Shown: positions 2,886-55,857, counted from the first letter of the stretch. The stretch is 64,000 nt of DNA from Flavobacteriaceae bacterium UBA3591 (GCA_002375695.1 DFMO01000008.1:38784-102783); one strand, 5' to 3'. The notes: generated by a model not told the origin, from the letters alone. Made by a program: numbers and translations.

Positions 2886-4145
2886 TTATTCTTCGCAAAT
2901 ATCGTTTCCAACGTTATTGCTAAAGGTTACATTATTGTAAGAAACTGAAGAATCGGGATGTAACGCTCTTTCAATAATTCCGCAGCCACCGCTATTTGTA
3001 ATATGTACGTTAGTTAATGTAATAGAAAGTGTAGAGGTGGTTTGGTCTCCTAATGATAGTGCAGCGGGAGTGTCAAACCAATCCCAATGCGATTGTCCGG
3101 CGTCTGCAATAATAGCGTTTTGAATTAAATTTAAACTACTGTTGCTTTGTGTTAAATTTATACCTTTCCAGCTACCCATTCCATATTGGCCAGAAAACAC
3201 AACATTATTGTCTGGAGTTCCTAACGCTTCAAATACCGTGTTTCCGTCCCTTACTTGAATACCGTATTCTTCGGCGAAAATTAATTCGCATCCTTCGGTA
3301 ATTCTTAAATGGCCTGGTTTTTCATTTGCTCTATCGTGAATAACAAGAATATTTTCATCGATAAAAAATGGTATTCCTGGGTTTAACCAAGTGTGTACAG
3401 GACCGTTTACTTCATCTTCAATAAAGCCACGATTGTAGATAGAACCTGAGTTTACATAAACTTCATTAGATCCATTATCTGCATAAATACTTTCTGCACC
3501 ATCTAAAAACTTTACTTTTCTAGCGGCAATTTGCATGGGATATCCCTGGTTGCCAATAATTGTATTAGATTGATAACCTTCAATGTTTGCTCCTGGAGCA
3601 ATAAAAATACCGTCGTGCTTATTATTTCTAATAATAGTATTTTTTATTTCAATTTTACTATTGTTATCTGCGTAGAGTGCAGCTCTACTACCATCTGTTG
3701 CACCTGCAAATTCAAGTATAACGTGGTTAAATTTGTTATTTAAGTCGCCAGAGGTTAAAAGTATTCTTTCCCAGGCCCCTGGTGTACTATTTGTTCCGGT
3801 AAACGTAATAGGTTTATCGGCTGTTCCAACTGCGGTAATTGAACCAGTAAAGGAATCGTAATCTTGCACGTGCATTCCACCGCCTTGTTCAAAAGCAATT
3901 GTTACGCCTGGCTCGATAATAAGCGGAGCGTATACTTTAACAAAGCACGGCCAAATATAATCTACACCTTCGCCACGATCTGTAAGTATCATTTCTTCTT
4001 CAATGATATTACAACTTAATACTAAGGGTTCTACTATTGGGTCTGGCTCTGCGGGTGCGTCATCATCAGAACTACAACTTGTGTATGCAAAACTGGCAAT
4101 TGCTAAAATTAAAAGTGGTTTTAACCTGAATTGAGAAATCTTCAT
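2886..4145 (-). CDS. Lipoprotein with right-handed parallel beta-helix-like repeats; function unknown
   Basis: 419 aa. Signal peptide plus lipobox (LAIASFAYTSCSSDDD). Repeated short G/N/I-rich segments (NTIIRNNKHDGIFI, NTIIGNQGYPMQI, NAIIADAGQ, HITNSGGCGII) are typical of beta-helix proteins. Confidence 0.55.
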   Translation of the reverse strand: MKISQFRLKPLLILAIASFAYTSCSSDDDAPAEPDPIVEPLVLSCNIIEEEMILTDRGEGVDYIWPCFVKVYAPLIIEPGVTIAFEQGGGMHVQDYDSFTGSITAVGTADKPITFTGTNSTPGAWERILLTSGDLNNKFNHVILEFAGATDGSRAALYADNNSKIEIKNTIIRNNKHDGIFIAPGANIEGYQSNTIIGNQGYPMQIAARKVKFLDGAESIYADNGSNEVYVNSGSIYNRGFIEDEVNGPVHTWLNPGIPFFIDENILVIHDRANEKPGHLRITEGCELIFAEEYGIQVRDGNTVFEALGTPDNNVVFSGQYGMGSWKGINLTQSNSSLNLIQNAIIADAGQSHWDWFDTPAALSLGDQTTSTLSITLTNVHITNSGGCGIIERALHPDSSVSYNNVTFSNNVGNDICEE

Positions 4146-4233
4146 TTTTTATTTTCTTTAAATTCTATTAAAGCCCATATTTACTGGCTTTAATATGAGT
4201 TATTAAACAATAATTTTTTTAGAATAATTCAGC

Positions 4234-4241
4234 CAAAACTA
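4234..4241 (-). promoter_or_regulatory. Candidate -7 promoter box for the beta-helix lipoprotein gene
   Basis: The minus strand reads TAGTTTTG (TAnnTTTG), about 90 nt upstream of the ATG at 4145. Confidence 0.35.
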
Positions 4242-4433
4242 ACAAGCAAAGAAGGGTTGCACAATACAAAATGAGTATTCAGTACAATTGAATTAGAATT
4301 TGGTTAACCAAGTTGTATTTAGAAAAGTCTAGTGATAAATAATAAAATCAATACTTCGTTTTGTAATTTTCTGAAATAAAATTTGTAGCCCGAGTAACTA
4401 AAAAGCTTTGAATTTTTTCTTTATATAAAGTCG

Positions 4434-5192
4434 CTATTTAAACCGAAGCATAGTTTCAAGAATATGATTTACTTGCTTTGTTTTTTGTCTTGAAACAGGC
4501 ACTTCAACATCATCGTGCATCACCAAACTGCCTCCGTCATGCTTTAAAATTCCTTTTACATAGCGCGGATTGATTAAATGTGATTGATGCACCCGAACAA
4601 AACCGTGTTCAGATAAAAGTTCGTCAATCTCTTTTAGCGTTCTGCTTATTAACACCTTGTTTTGATCTTTGCAAAATATATGGGTGTAATTACTGTCAGA
4701 CTGACATCGCACAATATTATCGATTTCTACAATTTGGTACCCAATACCCGTAGGCAGTGCAATTTGTGAACATTCGTTGTCGGTTTTATCGAGGTGTTTT
4801 TGAAATAATTCCCATTGTTTATCAGACGTTTTATTGCGTCTTTTTTCCCAGTTTGAAAGTGCTTTTACAATATTTTTTTCGGTAATAGGTTTTAGTAAAT
4901 AATTGATAGCACTATAACGAAATGCTTTTATGGCATATTGATCATAAGCCGTTGTAAAAATTACATCAAAATTAATAGGGAAAAGATTATCTAAAAGCGC
5001 AAAGCCGTTTAATTTGGGCATTTCAATATCTAAAAATAATAAATCTGGCGGGTTGTTTTTTATAAATTCCAAGCCTTCAATTGGGTTTGTAAAAATACCC
5101 GTGATTGTATAATCGGAATGAATTTTTTCGATTAAACTCGCTAATACATTGGTGCAATGCATCTCGTCATCTATAATTATTATTTTTGCCAT
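4434..5192 (-). CDS. LytR/AlgR-family response regulator (receiver + LytTR DNA-binding domain)
   Basis: 252 aa. Receiver motifs IIIDDE and DLLFLDIEMPKLNG. The C-terminal LytTR-like region contains RCQSDSNYTHIF and VRVHQSHLINPRYV. Confidence 0.85.
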   Translation of the reverse strand: MAKIIIIDDEMHCTNVLASLIEKIHSDYTITGIFTNPIEGLEFIKNNPPDLLFLDIEMPKLNGFALLDNLFPINFDVIFTTAYDQYAIKAFRYSAINYLLKPITEKNIVKALSNWEKRRNKTSDKQWELFQKHLDKTDNECSQIALPTGIGYQIVEIDNIVRCQSDSNYTHIFCKDQNKVLISRTLKEIDELLSEHGFVRVHQSHLINPRYVKGILKHDGGSLVMHDDVEVPVSRQKTKQVNHILETMLRFK

Positions 5193-5195
5193 TTC

Positions 5196-7217
5196 TTAAT
5201 ATTGATATGTTAGTATTATTCGTGTGCCCAAGGCGCGACCGTCCTCTTCTAAATCGATTATTTTATACCGAATCGTATTTTCGTTTAAATGGTTATGAAG
5301 CGTCAAGCGCTCCTCCACAATTTGTGTCCCTACAGAGGCGTGCAATTTTCTTCTTTTTGCGCTTTCTTTTCTTCCTATCCCGTTATCTTCTATAATTATT
5401 TTTAAATTTTCGGCGGTATCAAAAATTATATCCAATCTCTTTTCGGTCTTTAAACTGGGTTGAAGTCCGTGCCAAATAGCATTTTCGACTAAAGGTTGCA
5501 ATAATAAAGGTGGGATTTGATACTGCGATAGGGTATCTCTATCGTTAGCCTCAATATTGTAAATAAATTGGCTACCCATTCTATTTTGTTCTAATGAAAG
5601 ATATAATTCTAAAATCTCTAACTCTTCTTCAACACTTATTTTTTTGCGATCGCTGTTTTGCAAAATACCTCGCAACAAACTAGAAAAATCGTCTAAATAT
5701 ATGGAGGCATCATCATTTCTGGAAGTCATTATTAAATGTTTAATAGCATTTAAACTATTAAAAATAAAGTGTGGATTCATTTGTGAACGCAGCGCTATCA
5801 TTTCGGTTTCTTTAATTCGCTGGGTAAATTCTCGTTTTATTTTTTCTTCTTTTTCTCTTTCTATTTCAGAGTATAGCTCAATTAATTCGGCTGTTTTATC
5901 GTGAATTTTATTGTCCAAGCGTCTATTCATATTTTCCTGCAACAATTTGTTTTCTTGTAATTGCGCAATTAATTTTTTGTTTGCTTTTGCCTTTTCTTTT
6001 TGAAGTAGAAACACATTTTGTCCCAATGCAAGGGAAAAGCAATATACTTCAGCCAGTAAACCAATTTGAAAAATAATATTGGGCGCTTCTTTAAAATTAA
6101 ATATACCGCCAAGCAACAAACTTTTATCGCCCGCCCCAATGTACGAGCCTAAAAGGGCGCCAATAAAAAAGAAGGATTGCCCAAAAATAAAATAGATAAG
6201 TAGTGGATGCTTGACCTTGTAAATTATCCAAAAAATTAAAACAAAATTTATTGGTAAAATTATTATTCTAACAATTAAAAATACGATGGATGCTATTTTG
6301 TGATCCTGTGTAAAAAGATTAACTCCAAACCTCAATACCGCATAAATAAAACACGCCCACCCTAAATAAGTTAATATCTTGGCTAAAAGCTTGTCGTAGT
6401 CTTCAACTTTTAAAAGCTTAATTATAAAGAATATGTAAAACCCAATAAAAGTAAATTGAACGGGCTCAAAAAGCTGTATCGACAAACTTGGTTGATACTG
6501 AAAAATATTGCCAACTGGCGCCAGCGTACTTCGCAATACAGTAAATCCATAAATTAATTGAAAAAATAAATACCCCAAGTAATAGGTATAGAGCTTTTCT
6601 CTTAATCTAAACCAAAAAACTATGGCAAAGATTATAATGGTAAATATGGATATTATATAAAAATAAAGAAAGCCAATAGACTTGGTTTGCTCATTAAAAT
6701 CTATTAAATAATGCTTTAAATAACCTTCTTCAGAATACAGGGTTGGGGTGTTGTCTAAATTGGTATTATACACGCGTAGCAATCTTACATAAACAAGCGA
6801 ATTTTCTTGAGCTGCTACCGAAATTGGTATAAAATAATCTACTGTTTTATTTACGCGCTGCGGCATGGGTAAAAAATACCCGTTGTCCATTTTTTTAAAA
6901 TTTCCGTTTATGTTTTGATATACCGTTGTATGTTGGTCTATACTGTACAAATAGCATAAAACGCTTTCTTGTGAATTATTCTTAAGCTTAAATTTTAACC
7001 AGATAGCCGAATCGCGCGAGGCTTCAAATTTAGGTGTAAATTTTTGCCAATTATCTTGTTGTAAAATAGATTGAAATGATGCGTTTTTGTCTGTTTTAAG
7101 CGCTTCTACTTTATTTGTTAATGGAAGCTTGTCTGTGATAGAATCTACAGCAATTTGGCCATGCATTGCCCATGCATTTGCCAAAAAACAAACAACAATT
7201 ATTAAATAGGTTTTCAT
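5196..7217 (-). CDS. Sensor histidine kinase: extracellular 7TMR-DISM-like domain, 7 TM segments and a LytS/YehU-type kinase core
   Basis: 673 aa. Signal peptide, then a long hydrophobic multi-TM block, a coiled-coil, the MNPHFIFNSLNAI motif (His_kinase PF06580 type) and ATPase ENAIWHGL ... DNGIG. Its stop lies 3 nt from the response regulator ATG, so the two form an operon. Confidence 0.8.
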   Translation of the reverse strand: MKTYLIIVVCFLANAWAMHGQIAVDSITDKLPLTNKVEALKTDKNASFQSILQQDNWQKFTPKFEASRDSAIWLKFKLKNNSQESVLCYLYSIDQHTTVYQNINGNFKKMDNGYFLPMPQRVNKTVDYFIPISVAAQENSLVYVRLLRVYNTNLDNTPTLYSEEGYLKHYLIDFNEQTKSIGFLYFYIISIFTIIIFAIVFWFRLREKLYTYYLGYLFFQLIYGFTVLRSTLAPVGNIFQYQPSLSIQLFEPVQFTFIGFYIFFIIKLLKVEDYDKLLAKILTYLGWACFIYAVLRFGVNLFTQDHKIASIVFLIVRIIILPINFVLIFWIIYKVKHPLLIYFIFGQSFFFIGALLGSYIGAGDKSLLLGGIFNFKEAPNIIFQIGLLAEVYCFSLALGQNVFLLQKEKAKANKKLIAQLQENKLLQENMNRRLDNKIHDKTAELIELYSEIEREKEEKIKREFTQRIKETEMIALRSQMNPHFIFNSLNAIKHLIMTSRNDDASIYLDDFSSLLRGILQNSDRKKISVEEELEILELYLSLEQNRMGSQFIYNIEANDRDTLSQYQIPPLLLQPLVENAIWHGLQPSLKTEKRLDIIFDTAENLKIIIEDNGIGRKESAKRRKLHASVGTQIVEERLTLHNHLNENTIRYKIIDLEEDGRALGTRIILTYQY

Positions 7218-50277: not shown

Positions 50278-53200
50278 ATGAAACAACTTAACTATTTAAC
50301 AACATTATTAGTACTCTTCATATTCTCGAGTACAATTACTGCACAAACAGTAATTGGGTTTGAGGATTTTGACGGTAATGAAATTAATCTTTCAGGTTCT
50401 ACCAACGTGGCCAATTACGGCAGTGGTGGAGGTGCGGGCGGCGATGTTTTTGGCCGTGTTAACGGACAAGCTGGTGGAATAGGGATGCCTTTTGACGTTG
50501 CAGACGATACTGCTTATAACGTAAGTGGCGGAGGCGCTGGATCTAATTTTCCTGCAGACCAATTGGGGATAGCAGGTCAAAACACCACGGCTTTCTTTGC
50601 TTTAAACGATATGGATGCCGTAGGGGTTAACGACGCCGTTTGGACGTTTTCTGGCTGGGGTGATGCTGTCATAAATTCAATTACAATAGATTTAGCAGCT
50701 ATGGGTAATTTTGAAACTGCGAGCAGCGATGGCTTTATAATTGAAGCTGCTGTTAATGGCGGTGCTTTTCAAGAAATTTTTAGAGCTGTAACAAATGAAG
50801 CTGAAACAAAAACTTACCGTCCGTTAGACGGTGGATTTGTTTTAACTACAGACGATCCATTAGAGTTATTTATTGACGGAAACCTTACTGCTGAAGGGTT
50901 TTTAGATAAATGCGATGTAGTTACAGGTAATTTTGATACCTACACTTCGCAACTTTTAAATGGTGAAACAGCGTCAGAAATACAAATTAAGCTTAGATGG
51001 GAAGGCGCTCCAAGTGGTTCGGAGCCTATGGGGATTGACAATATTACAATTAACGGCACTCCAATAGTAAGTACTCCAGAGCTGGTAATTTCTGAAATAA
51101 TGTACAACCCATCAAGTTCAGAAGATGATTGGGAGTGGATAGAAGTTTACAATGCTGGAGCCACTGCAGTAGATTTAGCTGGTTTTGTAATCGACGACAA
51201 CAATGGTGCAGCGCATTCTTCTGCAAACATTGCAGGTGGTATAATTGCTGCAGGTGCCTCGGCAGTTTTCTTTAATGCAGATGATATTACTGAAACCGAT
51301 TTTGCAGCAGCTTGGGGCGATGTGGCGCTTATTCCTGTAACAAATTGGGGGGCAATGACGTTGAATAACGGTGGCGATACAATAGCAATTTGGGAAAGTT
51401 TTGCAGCTTACACAGGCGATCATCAAACACAACTTAATGCAATTGAGCAAGTGGCTTATGATGATTCTAATGGCTGGCCAAGTGATAACAATGCAGGGTC
51501 AATTTATTTAACAGATTTAACCGCCGATAATACCGATGGTGCTAATTGGGCGTTGAGTACAGATGGCGCTTCAACACCACTCTTTACAGCTTATACAAGT
51601 AACGCGGCTGCTGGCAATTCTGGTGCAGATGTTGGTTCGCCAGGAGTACCTGCCAGCAGTATAAAACCGTTGTTAATTACTGAAATTGCCGTAACACCAA
51701 CGGCAGGCGAATTTATTGAAATATACAATCCAAATGCTACAAGCGTAGATTTGAGCAATGTTTATTTAACCGATGCAACTTTTGCCGGAGGGTCTACATA
51801 TTATTATAATATTGTTACTGGCTCAAATGCTGGTGGCGGCGGGTTTGGCGACTTTTTAGCACGCTTTCCCGATGGAGCTACAATCGCTCCCGAAGAATAT
51901 ATAACTATTGCTATAACCGGATCAGAAGACTTTTTTGCGACTTATGGCGTTAATCCAGATTACGAATTATACGAAGATAACGCAACTGCAGATGCAATTC
52001 CTGATATGCGCGAAGGCCTTGCCGGGAGTATAAATAACCAAGGGAGTTTAACCAATGGTGGTGAGGTGGCAATTCTATTTTATTGGGATGGAACAACCGA
52101 TTTGGTAACCGATTTAGATTATGTAATTTGGGGTGATACCGCCGAAGCTGTAGATAAAACAGGTGTAACAATAGACGGTCCCGATGCAGATAATATTGGG
52201 TCTACCTATAATAATGATACACCAATAGCCTCGCAACAATTGGTTAGCACTTCGGCGCATAGTGTGGGCGAATCTTTTCAAAGACAAGACCTTTTAGAAG
52301 GTGCCGAAATAACTTCGGGTGGAAATGGTGCTAACGGGCACGATGAAACTTCAGAAGACTTAATGAATACTTGGTGCTCATCGGCGACTACGCCAGGACA
52401 GGCAAATACTTGTGGTACAGCGCCTACTACACTTTATAAAATTAGTGAAGTACAAGGAGCTTCTACAAGTTCACCTTTGGTTAATCAATCTGTAAAAGTT
52501 TCGGCTATAGTAACAGCTACTTTCCAAGGTACAAACCAAATAGGCGGGTTCTTTATCCAGGAAGAAGATGTTGATATGGATGCAGATAGCAATACTTCAG
52601 AAGGTGTATTTGTATACTGTAATTCTTGCCCAGATTTAGTTACTGTGGGCGATTTGGTTGAGGTAACGGGTACTGTAAAAGAATTCTTTGGAATGACGCA
52701 AATAGATGTTACTGTACCAAACAGTTTAATTACCGTTGTAAGTAGCGGAAATCCGTTGCCAACACCAACAGATATAACGCTTCCGGCAGCAGATAGTACT
52801 AGTGCCGAAGCTACTTTTGAAAGTGTTGAGGGGATGATTGTAAACGTAACAACCCCGCTAGTAGTAAGCGAGTATTTTGAATTAGCTCGATACGGTACGC
52901 TTATGCTTACCGCCAACGAAAGAGAATTCCAGTTTACACATACAAATACTCCAGACCCAACTAATTATACGGCATTTTTGGAAGATTTAGGTAAAAAACG
53001 AATTTTGTTAGACGATGATAGCAATATTCAAAACAACGCTACGGCAGGACCTGTAGATCAGCCGTACTTTTGGCCAAGACCGGGCTTAAGCAATTCTAAT
53101 TATATTAGAGGAGGCGATCAAATAAGCAATTTAAAAGGAATTATGCACTGGTCATTTTCAGGTCAAAATGGTACAGATGCTTGGCGAATTAGACCAGTAG

Positions 53201-55026
53201 TTGATGCATTCGATTACAACTTTACTTCAGAAAACCCACGCGTTTCTGAACCCGAAGAAGTAGGAGGAACTTTTAAAGTTGCTAGTTTTAACGTGTTAAA
53301 TTACTTTACAACTTTAAACCAAAGAGGTGCTCATTCGCAAGTAGAATTAGAACGTCAGCGTGCAAAAATAGCTGCTGCTATCTGTGCCTTAAATGCCGAT
53401 GTAGTTGGATTAATTGAAATAGAAAACAACGGTACAGTTGCTTTAAACGATCTTTTAAACGGTACGGGAGGAATTAATGACGTTTGCGGTAGCGACTATG
53501 TAGCAGTTGATGCAGGTGTAATTGGCGGCGATCAAATTGCGGTTGCATTTATTTATAATGCTGCAACAACATCATTGGCTGGTGCGCATGCTATTTTAGA
53601 TAGTTCGGTAGATCCACGTTTCCTCGATAGTAAAAACCGTCCTGCCTTAGCACAAACATTCGAAGAAATTGCTACAGGTGGTAAAATTACAATTGCAGTT
53701 AACCATTTTAAATCAAAAGGTTCTTCGTGTAATGACGTTGGCGACCCTAATTTAAATGATGGTTCTGGAAATTGTAATGGTACCAGAACCGATGCTGCAG
53801 CTGCTTTAGTAGACTGGCTTGCAACAGACCCAACAAATAGCGGCGACACAGATTTCTTAATTTTAGGAGATTTAAATTCGTATAAAAGTGAAACGCCAAT
53901 AAGCGCAATTCTTGCAGGAGCCGATGACACTCCGGGCACAGGTGATGACTATACCGATTTACTTGCACATTTTGTTGGCGCTAATGCTTACGGATATGTT
54001 TTTAACGGCCAATTGGGCTACTTAGACTATGCACTAGCAAATGCCGATTTACTTACGCAGGTTACGGGTGCAACTTCTTGGAATATTAATGCAGACGAAA
54101 TTAATCTTTTTGATTACAATGATGGCGTTCAAGATCCTGGAGAGGCTTCATTTCACAGAGAGTCTAATGCCTTGCCTATTTACGAACCCAACATGTTTAG
54201 AGCTTCAGATCACGATCCCGTGCTAGTAGGTTTAAATTTAGTTACGGCAAACAACGCTCCGGTAATTGATTGTCCCGCAAATATTTCGACAAACGTAGAT
54301 GCTGGAAGCTGCAGTGCAATAGTTGTTTTCCCAGATGCAACGGCTACCGATGTAGACGGCGATTTACAAACGGTTGAACAAACCAACGGTTTAACTTCGG
54401 GGAGTGCATTTCCTGTGGGTGAAACGGTTATTGAATTTACTGCAACCGATTCTAACGGAAATACCGCTGTTTGTACGTTTACAATTACGGTTATAGATAA
54501 TGAAGCTCCGCAAATAGATTGTCCGGCCGATTTTACTGTAGACACAGGAGTAGGGAATACACAATACGAAGTGCCAGATTTCTTTGCCACAGGTGTTGCT
54601 ACTGCAAATGATAATTGTACAGACCCTGTAACAATTTACACCCAAAATCCGGCAGAAGGCGAGCTTTTAGATGACGGTGTTTACGAAGTAATCTTAACAG
54701 CAGAAGACGAATACGGAAATATTTCAGATTGTTCATTTAACCTTACCGTTGAAAGCGTTTTGGGGGTAAGTGAAAACCTGTTGGAAAATGCCGTACGTAT
54801 TTTTCCAAACCCCGCAAAAACTGAAGTAACAATCGCAAAAAGTAGCGATATTTCTTTAGAATCTGCAACGGTGTTTGATATTACCGGAAGAGTAATTATG
54901 ACAGTTAATTTAAAAGCAATGAACCAGGAGAAAACAATTGATATTTCAAAATTTCAGTCTGGTATCTATTTAATTAAATTAGAGAGTGCCAATGCAACGC
55001 TCACAAAACAACTATTGAAGAAATAA
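50278..55026 (+). CDS. ExeM/NucH-type extracellular endonuclease: two lamin-tail (LTD) domains, an endonuclease/exonuclease/phosphatase (EEP) domain, HYR modules and a T9SS C-terminal sorting domain
   Basis: 1582 aa with a signal peptide. LTD-like ISEIMYNPSSSEDDWEWIEVYN and ITEIAVTPTAGEFIEIYNPNATSVDLS. EEP motifs FKVASFNVLNYF, VVGLIEIEN, NHFKSKG, LGDLNSY and RASDHDPVLVGL. CTD motif VRIFPNPAKTEVTIA. Confidence 0.8.
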   Translation: MKQLNYLTTLLVLFIFSSTITAQTVIGFEDFDGNEINLSGSTNVANYGSGGGAGGDVFGRVNGQAGGIGMPFDVADDTAYNVSGGGAGSNFPADQLGIAGQNTTAFFALNDMDAVGVNDAVWTFSGWGDAVINSITIDLAAMGNFETASSDGFIIEAAVNGGAFQEIFRAVTNEAETKTYRPLDGGFVLTTDDPLELFIDGNLTAEGFLDKCDVVTGNFDTYTSQLLNGETASEIQIKLRWEGAPSGSEPMGIDNITINGTPIVSTPELVISEIMYNPSSSEDDWEWIEVYNAGATAVDLAGFVIDDNNGAAHSSANIAGGIIAAGASAVFFNADDITETDFAAAWGDVALIPVTNWGAMTLNNGGDTIAIWESFAAYTGDHQTQLNAIEQVAYDDSNGWPSDNNAGSIYLTDLTADNTDGANWALSTDGASTPLFTAYTSNAAAGNSGADVGSPGVPASSIKPLLITEIAVTPTAGEFIEIYNPNATSVDLSNVYLTDATFAGGSTYYYNIVTGSNAGGGGFGDFLARFPDGATIAPEEYITIAITGSEDFFATYGVNPDYELYEDNATADAIPDMREGLAGSINNQGSLTNGGEVAILFYWDGTTDLVTDLDYVIWGDTAEAVDKTGVTIDGPDADNIGSTYNNDTPIASQQLVSTSAHSVGESFQRQDLLEGAEITSGGNGANGHDETSEDLMNTWCSSATTPGQANTCGTAPTTLYKISEVQGASTSSPLVNQSVKVSAIVTATFQGTNQIGGFFIQEEDVDMDADSNTSEGVFVYCNSCPDLVTVGDLVEVTGTVKEFFGMTQIDVTVPNSLITVVSSGNPLPTPTDITLPAADSTSAEATFESVEGMIVNVTTPLVVSEYFELARYGTLMLTANEREFQFTHTNTPDPTNYTAFLEDLGKKRILLDDDSNIQNNATAGPVDQPYFWPRPGLSNSNYIRGGDQISNLKGIMHWSFSGQNGTDAWRIRPVVDAFDYNFTSENPRVSEPEEVGGTFKVASFNVLNYFTTLNQRGAHSQVELERQRAKIAAAICALNADVVGLIEIENNGTVALNDLLNGTGGINDVCGSDYVAVDAGVIGGDQIAVAFIYNAATTSLAGAHAILDSSVDPRFLDSKNRPALAQTFEEIATGGKITIAVNHFKSKGSSCNDVGDPNLNDGSGNCNGTRTDAAAALVDWLATDPTNSGDTDFLILGDLNSYKSETPISAILAGADDTPGTGDDYTDLLAHFVGANAYGYVFNGQLGYLDYALANADLLTQVTGATSWNINADEINLFDYNDGVQDPGEASFHRESNALPIYEPNMFRASDHDPVLVGLNLVTANNAPVIDCPANISTNVDAGSCSAIVVFPDATATDVDGDLQTVEQTNGLTSGSAFPVGETVIEFTATDSNGNTAVCTFTITVIDNEAPQIDCPADFTVDTGVGNTQYEVPDFFATGVATANDNCTDPVTIYTQNPAEGELLDDGVYEVILTAEDEYGNISDCSFNLTVESVLGVSENLLENAVRIFPNPAKTEVTIAKSSDISLESATVFDITGRVIMTVNLKAMNQEKTIDISKFQSGIYLIKLESANATLTKQLLKK

Positions 55027-55103: not shown

Positions 55104-55625
55104 TTAGCTGCATTTTGCACAGTCTGCCTCACCAATTAAATTCCCGTTTTTATCAAAATCGTATTTACAACACTCACTAAATTTTTCTTTTAACATAGCT
55201 TTGGAACGTCTAATTCGGGCTTTTATATTGGCTAAACTTATTGACAATAGTTGTGCAGCCTCTTCTTGTTTTTTACCTTGAATGTATACTAATTCTACCG
55301 TTTCTTTATAAATAGAAGGCAAATCATTTATAAACTCATCAAAACAACAAAAAGCTTCCGTGCTTTCGGTAGTTGAATATTCTTGATTGTTTAAATGATT
55401 TACATATTTAGCCTCGTTTGAAAAGTAATTCGCTATTTCATTTCTCGCTATTTGAAAAACCCAAGCCTTAATTTTTTGATCTTCTCTAACCCGATGAATG
55501 TTTTTATGAATCTTTAAAAAGGTATTTTGAAAAATATCGCCTGTGGCAACTTCGTTTTTTACCCTTTTTAAGATGAAAAAATAGAGTTGTTCATTAAATT
55601 GGGTCCATATTTTTTCGGTGTCCAT
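55104..55625 (-). CDS. ECF-type sigma-70 family RNA polymerase sigma factor with three Cys pairs (SigZ-like subgroup)
   Basis: 173 aa from ATG 55625. Region 2 (FQNTFLKIHKNIHRV..AWVFQIARNEIANYF), region 4 HTH (VELVYIQGKKQEEAAQLLSISLANIKARIRRSK), an inter-domain FCCF, and a C-terminal tail SECCKYDFDKNGNLIGEADCAKCS. The TTG 55643 start in the track would place the coding sequence inside the upstream hairpin. Confidence 0.8.
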   Translation of the reverse strand: MDTEKIWTQFNEQLYFFILKRVKNEVATGDIFQNTFLKIHKNIHRVREDQKIKAWVFQIARNEIANYFSNEAKYVNHLNNQEYSTTESTEAFCCFDEFINDLPSIYKETVELVYIQGKKQEEAAQLLSISLANIKARIRRSKAMLKEKFSECCKYDFDKNGNLIGEADCAKCS

Positions 55626-55628
55626 ACT

Positions 55629-55667
55629 CAAAAATAAAAACAAAGGTTGAATAAAAATTCAACCTTT
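55629..55667 (-). terminator. Hairpin plus T-tract between the Cys-rich peptide gene and the sigma gene (terminator or attenuator)
   Basis: The minus strand reads AAAGGTTGA-ATTTTTAT-TCAACCTTT (perfect 9-bp stem, 55667..55642), then GTTTTTATTTTTG. It starts 6 nt after the peptide stop and ends 3 nt before the sigma ATG. Confidence 0.6.
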
Positions 55668-55673
55668 TAATAT

Positions 55674-55787
55674 TTAACAGCAGTCGCACTTGCTACATTC
55701 ACACTTTTCGCAACTACAGTTTTGTTGCGCGCAATTTACACAGTTACATATAGTACACTCGCAGTTAGTACATTTACAATTATTCAT
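55674..55787 (-). CDS. Unannotated 37-aa cysteine-rich peptide (metallothionein-like): MNNCKCTNCECTICNCVNCAQQNCSCEKCECSKCDCC
   Basis: Manual reverse translation with ATG at 55787..55785 and TAA at 55676..55674. 14 of 37 residues are Cys, with no His or aromatic residues and a 15-nt (CxCxx) periodicity. It has its own downstream hairpin/T-tract. It is shorter than the ORF-track cutoff. Confidence 0.6.
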   Translation of the reverse strand: MNNCKCTNCECTICNCVNCAQQNCSCEKCECSKCDCC

Positions 55788-55857
55788 AATTTATATTTTT
55801 TAGGTTCATTAAGTAGACTGGAAAGATGTAAAAAGGATACATTTTATTTCAAGCTTT

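Follow-up and report, generated by a model that had tools for sequence, protein, structure and literature searches.

Extracytoplasmic function (ECF) sigma factors of group ECF238, which merges the former groups ECF24 and ECF44, carry cysteine-rich tails and have no known anti-sigma factor, and the group takes in SigZ of Bacillus subtilis, whose function is unknown, as well as CorE2 of Myxococcus (PMC7826278, PMC8999054). CorE answers copper, and CorE2 answers cadmium and zinc, via tail/linker cysteines; the hallmark of CorE-like proteins (the former ECF44) is a linker CxC motif together with a C-terminal cysteine-rich domain (CRD) bearing six cysteines (PMC4937300). No companion Cys-rich peptide has been described for ECF238 sigma factors in the literature that we searched, which included these three reports. 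Here we analyze a candidate for such a companion: the product of a 37-codon open reading frame (ORF) situated just upstream of a SigZ-like sigma factor gene in a 64,000-nucleotide stretch of DNA from Flavobacteriaceae bacterium UBA3591 (GCA_002375695.1 DFMO01000008.1:38784-102783), the whole of which is referred to below as the window. CorE, CorE2 and B. subtilis SigZ resemble the adjacent sigma factor in combining sigma2 and sigma4 domains with a Cys-rich tail and linker Cys residues and in having no anti-sigma gene. Unlike CorE and CorE2, the sigma factor of the window has CC in place of CxC in its linker and four tail cysteines rather than six, which rules out a strict CorE-type protein.

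The peptide itself is most readily compared with bacterial metallothioneins. SmtA/BmtA (PF02069) and MymT are likewise small, cytoplasmic, Cys-rich and governed by a dedicated stress regulator, and metal-thiolate chemistry is presumed for the peptide as well. However, it has no sequence similarity to these proteins, is only 37 residues long, lacks His ligands, follows a strict (CxCxx)n register that divides into two halves of seven cysteines, and comes from the phylum Bacteroidota. The regulators also differ, with an ECF sigma factor apparently encoded in the same operon here, as opposed to the ArsR-family SmtB for SmtA and the CsoR-like RicR for MymT. Membership in the SmtA/BmtA type (about 55 residues, a Cys9His2-type Zn4 cluster and a zinc-finger-like fold) was rejected on the basis of the length, the lack of His and the lack of a PF02069 match. 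The initial annotation of this DNA had set the peptide apart from that type, and no catalogued metallothionein family was matched. The metallothionein of Neurospora crassa, a fungal Cu-thionein, has seven cysteines arranged as three CxC motifs and one single Cys, and the beta-domain of vertebrate metallothionein is comparable. Each half of the peptide is alike in having three CxC motifs, one further Cys and no aromatic residues, whereas its spacers are shorter and regular. Comparison by BLASTP with a human MT2 sequence revealed no significant similarity (E=49).

Examination of the sequence confirmed what had been read from it initially, namely a hidden ATG...TAA frame whose 37-residue product (MNNCKCTNCECTICNCVNCAQQNCSCEKCECSKCDCC) contains 14 Cys (38%) and lacks His, Phe, Tyr and Trp. 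Cysteines at positions 4, 9, 14, 19, 24, 29 and 34 define a strict period of five residues, and six of the seven resulting units carry a second Cys two positions later; the further cysteines occupy positions 6, 11, 16, 26, 31, 36 and 37, so that the peptide has six CxC motifs and a terminal CC with no CxxC. These units begin at residue 4, and there is no signal peptide. The remaining positions are filled mainly by N, D, E, K, T, S, P and G, in which metallothioneins are likewise rich at their non-Cys positions. The five-residue units had also been taken to give the DNA a 15-nt periodicity, which holds at the level of the peptide but not as a repeat in the DNA, as no tandem repeat was detected at the small ORF by Tandem Repeats Finder. 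The small ORF is far beyond chance. Among 30 shuffled versions of the window, the maximum number of Cys residues in any open stretch of 34 residues ranged from 5 to 7, compared to the 14 observed; the runner-up among the real frames of the window has 8, and the binomial probability of finding at least 14 TGY codons among 37 is about 4e-13, in keeping with the earlier judgment that a chance origin was improbable.

The adjacent sigma factor was used as a handle to retrieve related loci as contigs, with one genome per species, and the best 80 of 354 sigma relatives (50-72% identical) were compared. A Cys-rich ORF is present on the same strand just upstream of the sigma gene in 78 of the 80 loci, with fixed order and spacing, which substantiates the tie to the SigZ-like sigma factor that had been proposed from the window. 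The window itself stems from a metagenome-assembled genome of Aequorivita, and its species together with these 78 genome loci makes up the 79 non-duplicate ORF-bearing loci considered below. They are distributed among the orders Flavobacteriales, Cytophagales, Saprospirales, Sphingobacteriales and Chitinophagales, and their sources include many genera of Flavobacteriaceae, Brumimicrobium, Profundicola, Roseivirga, Portibacter and other Saprospiraceae, Pedobacter, Edaphocola, and metagenome-assembled genomes (MAGs) of Cyclobacteriaceae and Bacteroidales.

The 76 distinct peptide sequences found at these loci retain the Cys-rich and aromatic-poor character of the window peptide, with sporadic occurrences of H, F or Y. 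The ORF is 37 codons long in 72 of the 79 cases and otherwise 35 or 38; it starts with ATG in all but one and ends with a stop codon in every one. Among the 71 distinct DNA sequences of 37 codons, none of the 14 Cys codons varies at codon positions 1 and 2, there is zero non-synonymous change in them, and TGT and TGC are used in nearly equal proportion (50:50) at most of them, corresponding to a third-position entropy of about 1 bit. The ratio of non-synonymous to synonymous substitution (dN/dS) is about 0.2 for the whole ORF and about 0.5 when the non-Cys codons are taken alone; roughly 80% or more of the sequences share each of the non-Cys residues N2, T7, N8, N15, K28, E30 and K33. The fixed frame, length and Cys codons, combined with free TGT/TGC wobble, indicate a translated product whose Cys register matters. 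This pattern of substitution identifies the small ORF as a real gene and shows that purifying selection acts on it. The proposal of a genuine protein-coding gene is therefore borne out in relatives, where the frame, the length and every Cys have been preserved.

The start of the sigma gene is the ATG at position 55625, which is conserved in the alignment, and not the TTG at 55643 chosen by the ORF finder. Consequently, the 214-nt gap between alkB and the sigma gene given in the initial annotation applies only with the TTG start, and the distance becomes 232 nt with the conserved ATG. An alignment of 19 sequences revealed six invariant cysteines in the sigma factor: a CC pair in the linker between sigma2 and sigma4 (C93, C94) and a tail of the form CC-x15-CxxC (C152, C153, C169, C172), which reads CCKY...CxxC. 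Its best NCBIfam matches are the SigZ equivalog models NF007215 (150.2 bits, cut-off 212) and TIGR02959 (137.5 bits, cut-off 168.65), and since both scores fall below the cut-offs the protein is described here only as SigZ-like. The features that distinguish ECF238 are all apparent, including the two sigma domains, a short Cys tail, and no conserved neighbor except the peptide, and this combination places the sigma factor in or next to that group, as far as sequence features can assign it.

Upstream of the small ORF is an element resembling an ECF promoter (Table 1). The motif AAATGTATC(C/T)TTTT...(A/G)GTCTAC occurs at this position in 79 of 79 loci, the spacing GTATC-N17-GTCTAC is maintained in 78, and the -10-like box is 25-26 nt from the ATG in 71. 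Promoters of ECF sigma factors typically consist of two boxes 17 nt apart, of which the second is of the GTC type. The leader between this element and the ATG contains no Shine-Dalgarno sequence, as is usual in Bacteroidota.

A second conserved structure occupies the spacer between the two genes. The hairpin of the window is followed by GTTTTTATTTTTG and ends 16 nt before the sigma ATG. Among 71 loci compared, the stem comprises 10-14 bp in 61, begins 2-10 nt past the peptide stop codon in 67, and leaves 10-16 nt to the sigma ATG in 65, and the distance from the peptide stop to the sigma ATG is 42-63 nt, mostly 46-50. RNAalifold analysis of 58 loci yielded ten consensus pairs, each with compensatory double changes. 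The hairpin and its T-tract look like an intrinsic terminator or attenuator. Both had been noted at their position 6 nt past the stop codon, but the idea that they form the peptide gene's own terminator does not stand, as they constitute a conserved hairpin internal to an operon: a promoter upstream of the peptide gene and a hairpin only 10-16 nt ahead of the sigma ATG argue for one operon with an internal attenuating hairpin and against two separate units. The tail also contains a sequence that fits the Bacteroidota housekeeping -7 box, overlapping the terminator T-tract and ending 3-4 nt ahead of the sigma ATG in 36 of the 79 loci. This could be a second promoter that supports basal, leaderless transcription of the sigma gene without recourse to the ECF-type promoter upstream, and it might be a reason why the hairpin and tail keep their sequence as well as their structure.

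A comparison of neighborhoods among the loci revealed no other conserved neighbor genes. The flanking genes belong to unrelated families (DUF6503, ADH, YceI, beta-lactamase, FAD monooxygenase, Rieske), and alkB, which adjoins the module only in the window's lineage, is an accidental neighbor. As nothing else in the neighborhood is conserved, the conserved unit consists of promoter, peptide gene, hairpin and sigma gene, and by this comparison the peptide and sigma genes are a fixed two-gene module.

Table 1. Positions of the features discussed, numbered from the first nucleotide of the window unless a locus is named
Feature	Position	Strand	Remarks
Cys-rich peptide gene	55674..55787	-	37 codons and stop (ATG at 55787, TAA at 55676-55674); product MNNCKCTNCECTICNCVNCAQQNCSCEKCECSKCDCC
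A-rich 5' leader of peptide gene, TTAATGAACCTAAAAAATATAAATT	55788..55812	-	Conserved TGAAC and TAAAA blocks in by-eye upstream alignment
ECF-type promoter-like element, TGTATCCTTTTTACATCTTTCCAGTCTAC	55813..55841	-	Only match in the 64-kb window (0.01 expected)
-35-like box, TGTATC	55841-55836	-	
-10-like box, GTCTAC	55818-55813	-	
Stem-loop, AAAGGTTGAAT-TTTT-ATTCAACCTTT	55642..55667	-	11 bp, 4-nt loop; 6 nt past stop codon; terminator scan
T-rich tail, GTTTTTATTTTTGAGT	55626..55641	-	Between hairpin and sigma ATG; from sequence
-7-like box within tail, TATTTTTG	55636-55629	-	Fits Bacteroidota housekeeping consensus TAnnTTTG
SigZ-like ECF sigma factor gene	55104..55625	-	173 aa; Pfam Sigma70_r2 and Sigma70_r4_2
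Promoter motif, peptide-less locus L076	5270-5297	-	Receptor gene at 3078-5249 (-)
Promoter motif, peptide-less locus L081	5266-5293	-	

In our assessment, the sequences are best explained if the small ORF is translated into a thiolate-rich peptide of the cytoplasm and stands first in a two-gene operon with the SigZ-like sigma factor. The functional reading that we favor, with moderate confidence, is that of a sigma-controlled thionein, whether a metal-thiolate protein or a thiol sink, that probably exerts feedback on a Cys-sensing sigma factor. Detection of a soft metal (Zn, Cd or Cu) or of thiol-reactive stress at the Cys sites of the sigma factor would activate it, and it would then transcribe from TGTATC-N17-GTCTAC, which would be its own promoter and would make the operon autoregulated. 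Most transcripts are expected to stop at the hairpin after the peptide gene, with partial termination yielding much peptide and little sigma factor, and read-through would renew the latter. The 14 cysteines of the peptide, as two 7-Cys halves made of CxC units, could chelate metal or absorb oxidants or electrophiles, and removal of the signal, or the stripping of metal from the Cys sites of the sigma factor, would shut off the response in a negative feedback loop.

The label metallothionein is one that we infer from composition and from the sigma family. The window peptide has the composition by which such proteins are recognized (a Cys content of roughly 30% or higher, in CxC, CxxC or CC motifs, with few or no aromatic residues), and membership in a catalogued metallothionein family (Pfam Metallothio_* or PF02069) was rejected for lack of a significant match. 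Several observations weigh against a sigma-controlled metallothionein. No homology to a metallothionein family is evident, as searches of Pfam and NCBIfam with the window peptide returned nothing at E<=1, and only one of 55 family peptides matches Metallothio_11, a Pfam model of fungal metallothioneins, at an insignificant E=2.6. A profile search of the Protein Data Bank (PDB) found no metallothionein among its matches; the sole match is a McbG-like member of the pentapeptide-repeat proteins, a class with A(D/N)LXX repeats, and this match is insignificant (E=3.4), although a 5-residue period is seen in both. An AlphaFold2 (AF2) model of the peptide, computed metal-free from the single sequence, has a predicted local confidence (pLDDT) of 61 and no helices. 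As for the sigma factor, it departs from the strict CorE type as described above, and the SigZ branch of ECF238 to which it is closest is uncharacterized. Two relatives (L076, from Marixanthotalea marina, and L081, from Zunongwangia pacifica) retain an intact six-Cys sigma factor with no peptide, indicating that the peptide is dispensable to the sigma factor. Finally, the genes beside more distant SigZ homologues are related to redox or electrophile stress and not to metals, which favors a thiol-stress signal.

We rate the peptide, from its sequence and setting, as a putative thionein of a new family, placed under a new form of regulation. Should it bind metals, it would fill a gap in Bacteroidota, for which no metallothionein was found in the literature searched. 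ECF238/SigZ-type sigma factors are widespread, and to our knowledge a signal or regulon has been established only for the two Myxococcus proteins. The co-inherited 14-Cys peptide is thus a first candidate effector or regulator for the ECF238 clade and comes with a promoter motif that can be used in searches. Cultivable hosts of the module include Cellulophaga baltica DSM 24729, Polaribacter irgensii 23-P, Maribacter species such as M. polysiphoniae, and Pedobacter antarcticus.

A thiol/redox role, or direct regulation of the sigma factor, fits the data about as well as a metallothionein does. In the latter case, the peptide would be chiefly a regulatory partner of its ECF238 sigma clade, a thionein-type anti-sigma factor or co-sensor rather than a bulk chelator, that binds the sigma factor or swaps metal or disulfides with its six cysteines and thereby holds it inactive or activates it pending arrival of the signal. 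Such a partner would account for the near-obligate linkage of just these two genes with no other conserved, and it would supply a counterpart for a group with no known anti-sigma factor (PMC7826278, PMC8999054). Placing the peptide gene first, ahead of an internal terminator, would guarantee an excess of peptide over sigma factor, which is what an inhibitor needs. The module has also been duplicated as a pair on one contig of Aequorivita sp. CIP111184 (L012 and L014), and the peptide is confined to the sigma subclade marked by the linker CC, since four distant SigZ homologues lack both. On the other hand, a peptide of 37 residues with no predicted helices is unlike known anti-sigma domains, L076 and L081 keep the six-Cys sigma factor and a target promoter in the absence of the peptide, and no peptide-sigma fusion was found, the longer database entries for the sigma factor being miscalled starts. 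We regard a chiefly regulatory role as doubtful on balance. The same reserve applies to a more specific proposal, in which the thionein would be the missing regulator of a large group of "orphan" ECF238 (SigZ-type) sigma factors in Bacteroidota, acting by metal or disulfide exchange with the six linker and tail cysteines or by bridging them, with the hairpin adding a translation-dependent gate; if true, this would be the first metallothionein-like anti-sigma factor or co-sensor. A zinc-binding anti-sigma (ZAS)/class I domain (about 90 residues, helical, HxxxCxxC) was considered and rejected, as the peptide has 37 residues, no His, no CxxC, no helix and no Pfam match.

Somewhat less probable still, in our view, is that the peptide serves solely as a thiol or redox buffer, consumed in defense against oxidants, hypochlorite, electrophiles or metalloids, with no metal signal and with the sigma cysteines acting as a redox switch. 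Fourteen thiols in 37 residues would suit this purpose, and the Cys pairs of the sigma factor (CC, CC and CxxC) could form disulfides. The genes for redox and electrophile functions beside distant SigZ homologues point in the same direction, but that context amounts to four plasmid loci whose sigma factors are just 26-33% identical. Moreover, the characterized members of ECF238 answer metals (PMC7826278, PMC8999054, PMC4937300). By established chemistry, a (CxC)n peptide in a reducing, Zn-containing cytoplasm is expected to bind metal anyway.

The order of elements, in which a short ORF rich in Cys codons precedes a terminator-like hairpin and then a regulated gene, is also that of a cis-acting leader that senses cysteine, where the speed of the ribosome would set termination at the hairpin before the sigma gene and the product would be irrelevant. 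Given the spacing of 2-10 nt, a ribosome positioned on the stop codon would mask the 5' arm of the hairpin, and polycysteine short ORFs of mycobacteria are Cys-responsive attenuators (bioRxiv 10.1101/834739). These leaderless upstream ORFs (uORFs) are, like the small ORF described here, short, unannotated, rich in Cys codons and first in their operons (bioRxiv 10.1101/834739). The cysteines here, by contrast, follow a fixed register and do not form runs, the non-Cys residues and the length are conserved, and the downstream gene encodes a sigma factor and not an enzyme of a cysteine pathway. A stalling leader would need neither the 5-residue register nor the fixed length nor the conserved non-Cys residues. 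No conserved antiterminator was found: pairing between the ORF tail and the 5' arm across 71 loci does not surpass that in codon-shuffled controls (mean z of -0.32), and in the window sequence the hairpin stands alone with no competing fold. In addition, the Cys residues, length and spacing are kept at three loci that have no hairpin (L034, L077 and L083), and the ORF is intact in L199. We give this explanation little credence, a pure Cys-sensing leader peptide being unlikely; the hairpin lies close enough to the terminating ribosome to allow a secondary, translation-dependent effect on read-through. That the ORF encodes the precursor of a secreted or modified peptide (a ribosomally synthesized and post-translationally modified peptide (RiPP), a bacteriocin or a defensin-like peptide) is scarcely credible, for although it is small, Cys-rich and followed by a leaky terminator, like many precursor genes, it has no leader or signal sequence, its Cys units start at residue 4, and its surroundings contain no conserved gene for modification, transport or immunity. 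A chance ORF is rejected by a Cys count beyond that of shuffles and by conservation in 78 of 80 loci.

The small gene has been overlooked in protein collections. No homologous proteins were recovered by a word-indexed search with a 41-residue padded query, a phmmer search of 1.8 billion representatives with the 37-mer as query found no hits, and none of 10 exact peptide variants is present in a collection of 15 billion proteins. A short and Cys-biased query lowers the sensitivity of protein searches, so absence from these collections is to be read as "not annotated" and not as "not present". The assertion in the initial annotation that gene callers miss this ORF agrees with the missing records for all 10 variants. 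Rfam contains no significant match for the small-ORF region, and a plasmid search found no match to the peptide. The effect of this omission is visible in database entries for the sigma factor, where proteins of 186-203 residues are start miscalls whose translation runs out of frame through the peptide ORF. Seven such entries (P0013, P0032, P0043, P0047, P0048, P0072 and P0116) have N-termini that are 13-30 residues too long, with starts that lie within or ahead of the peptide ORF in another frame (e.g. ...NATNAVVVKPNKG...), such that the small gene is hidden. A strongly selected gene has thus been wholly missed by gene callers, and in some genomes the sigma start has been wrongly stretched over it.

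The two peptide-less loci, L076 and L081, carry the same TGTATCC-N-GTCTAC promoter ahead of a gene for a 723-residue TonB-dependent receptor that is convergent to the sigma gene (Table 1). In L081 this receptor is seemingly split into two ORFs. Four loci in Cyclobacterium, Leeuwenhoekiella and Algoriphagus, including a near-identical pair, carry orthologues of the receptor with 63-72% identity that have no sigma-type promoter, and the receptor was therefore rejected as a general member of the regulon. In the Leeuwenhoekiella and Algoriphagus loci (L205 and L207), the receptor orthologue is preceded by an ORF of 110-136 residues (L205 3553-3963, plus strand; L207 3624-3956, plus strand); these ORFs share the sequence DHLPCSPF(F/Y)SCG(N/S)CTGF and belong to no NCBIfam family.

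The distant SigZ homologues mentioned above are found on plasmids of Priestia, Vibrio, Hymenobacter and Arenibacter and are 26-33% identical to the sigma factor of the window; all four lack the linker CC and the peptide, indicating that the peptide belongs to a particular sigma subclade. The homologue from the Hymenobacter plasmid (28% identical) is preceded by GCGTC-N16-GTCTAT...GGAAC, and the occurrence of this similar element here and of the motif itself at L076 and L081, all without the peptide, ties the motif to the sigma family and not to the peptide. At the Priestia, Vibrio and Arenibacter loci (within the set L208-L211), redox and electrophile genes adjoin the sigma gene. The genes beside the distant homologues encode an aldo-keto reductase, DinB, a glutathione S-transferase (GST), a 2Fe-2S protein, an oxidoreductase of the old yellow enzyme (OYE) type (NADH:flavin), thioredoxin and DoxX. 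The Hymenobacter SigZ-like gene is about 2 kb from arsC/arsB.

A more remote parallel is provided by OrbS of Burkholderia cenocepacia, an ECF sigma factor whose C-terminal Cys-rich tail is described as an on-board iron sensor (PMC9023288). OrbS differs from the adjacent sigma factor in belonging to a different ECF group, and it is not known to have a companion peptide. By analogy, the Cys-rich tail of a sigma factor may sense metal in either direction.

Some individual loci depart from the common arrangement. Insertions of 183-260 nt are present in the spacer of L024 (2241-2500), L011 (2289-2500), L047 (2318-2500) and L078 (1720-1928), and these may be small mobile elements; in L024, from Mesonia profundi, the insert is located inside the hairpin loop, with an arm on either side. 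The hairpin is missing from L034 (2483-2500), L083 (2377-2392), L077 (2469-2500) and L199 (6166-6856), and in L034, from Galbibacter, it appears to have been cleanly deleted, leaving AAGGTTTTTT. The last of these loci, L199, came from a scan of metagenomes for the Cys-codon pattern, in which the matches listed were mainly TGY microsatellites and included at least one member of the family. It encodes a 44-residue peptide with the N-terminal extension MSTNNSSNS, and only 4 nt separate its stop codon from the sigma ATG. The two complete peptide-sigma modules of Aequorivita sp. CIP111184 (NZ_UEFQ01000026.1) are about 16 kb apart, with differing peptides and sigma factors and an identical promoter motif.

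On the far side of the sigma gene in the window, and convergent to it, is a gene for a secreted protein of 1582 residues (50278-55026, plus strand) with LTD, endonuclease/exonuclease/phosphatase, HYR and type IX secretion system (T9SS) sorting (Por_Secre_tail) domains. Gene calls for a second assembly of this species include just a 203-residue C-terminal fragment of the protein at that place.

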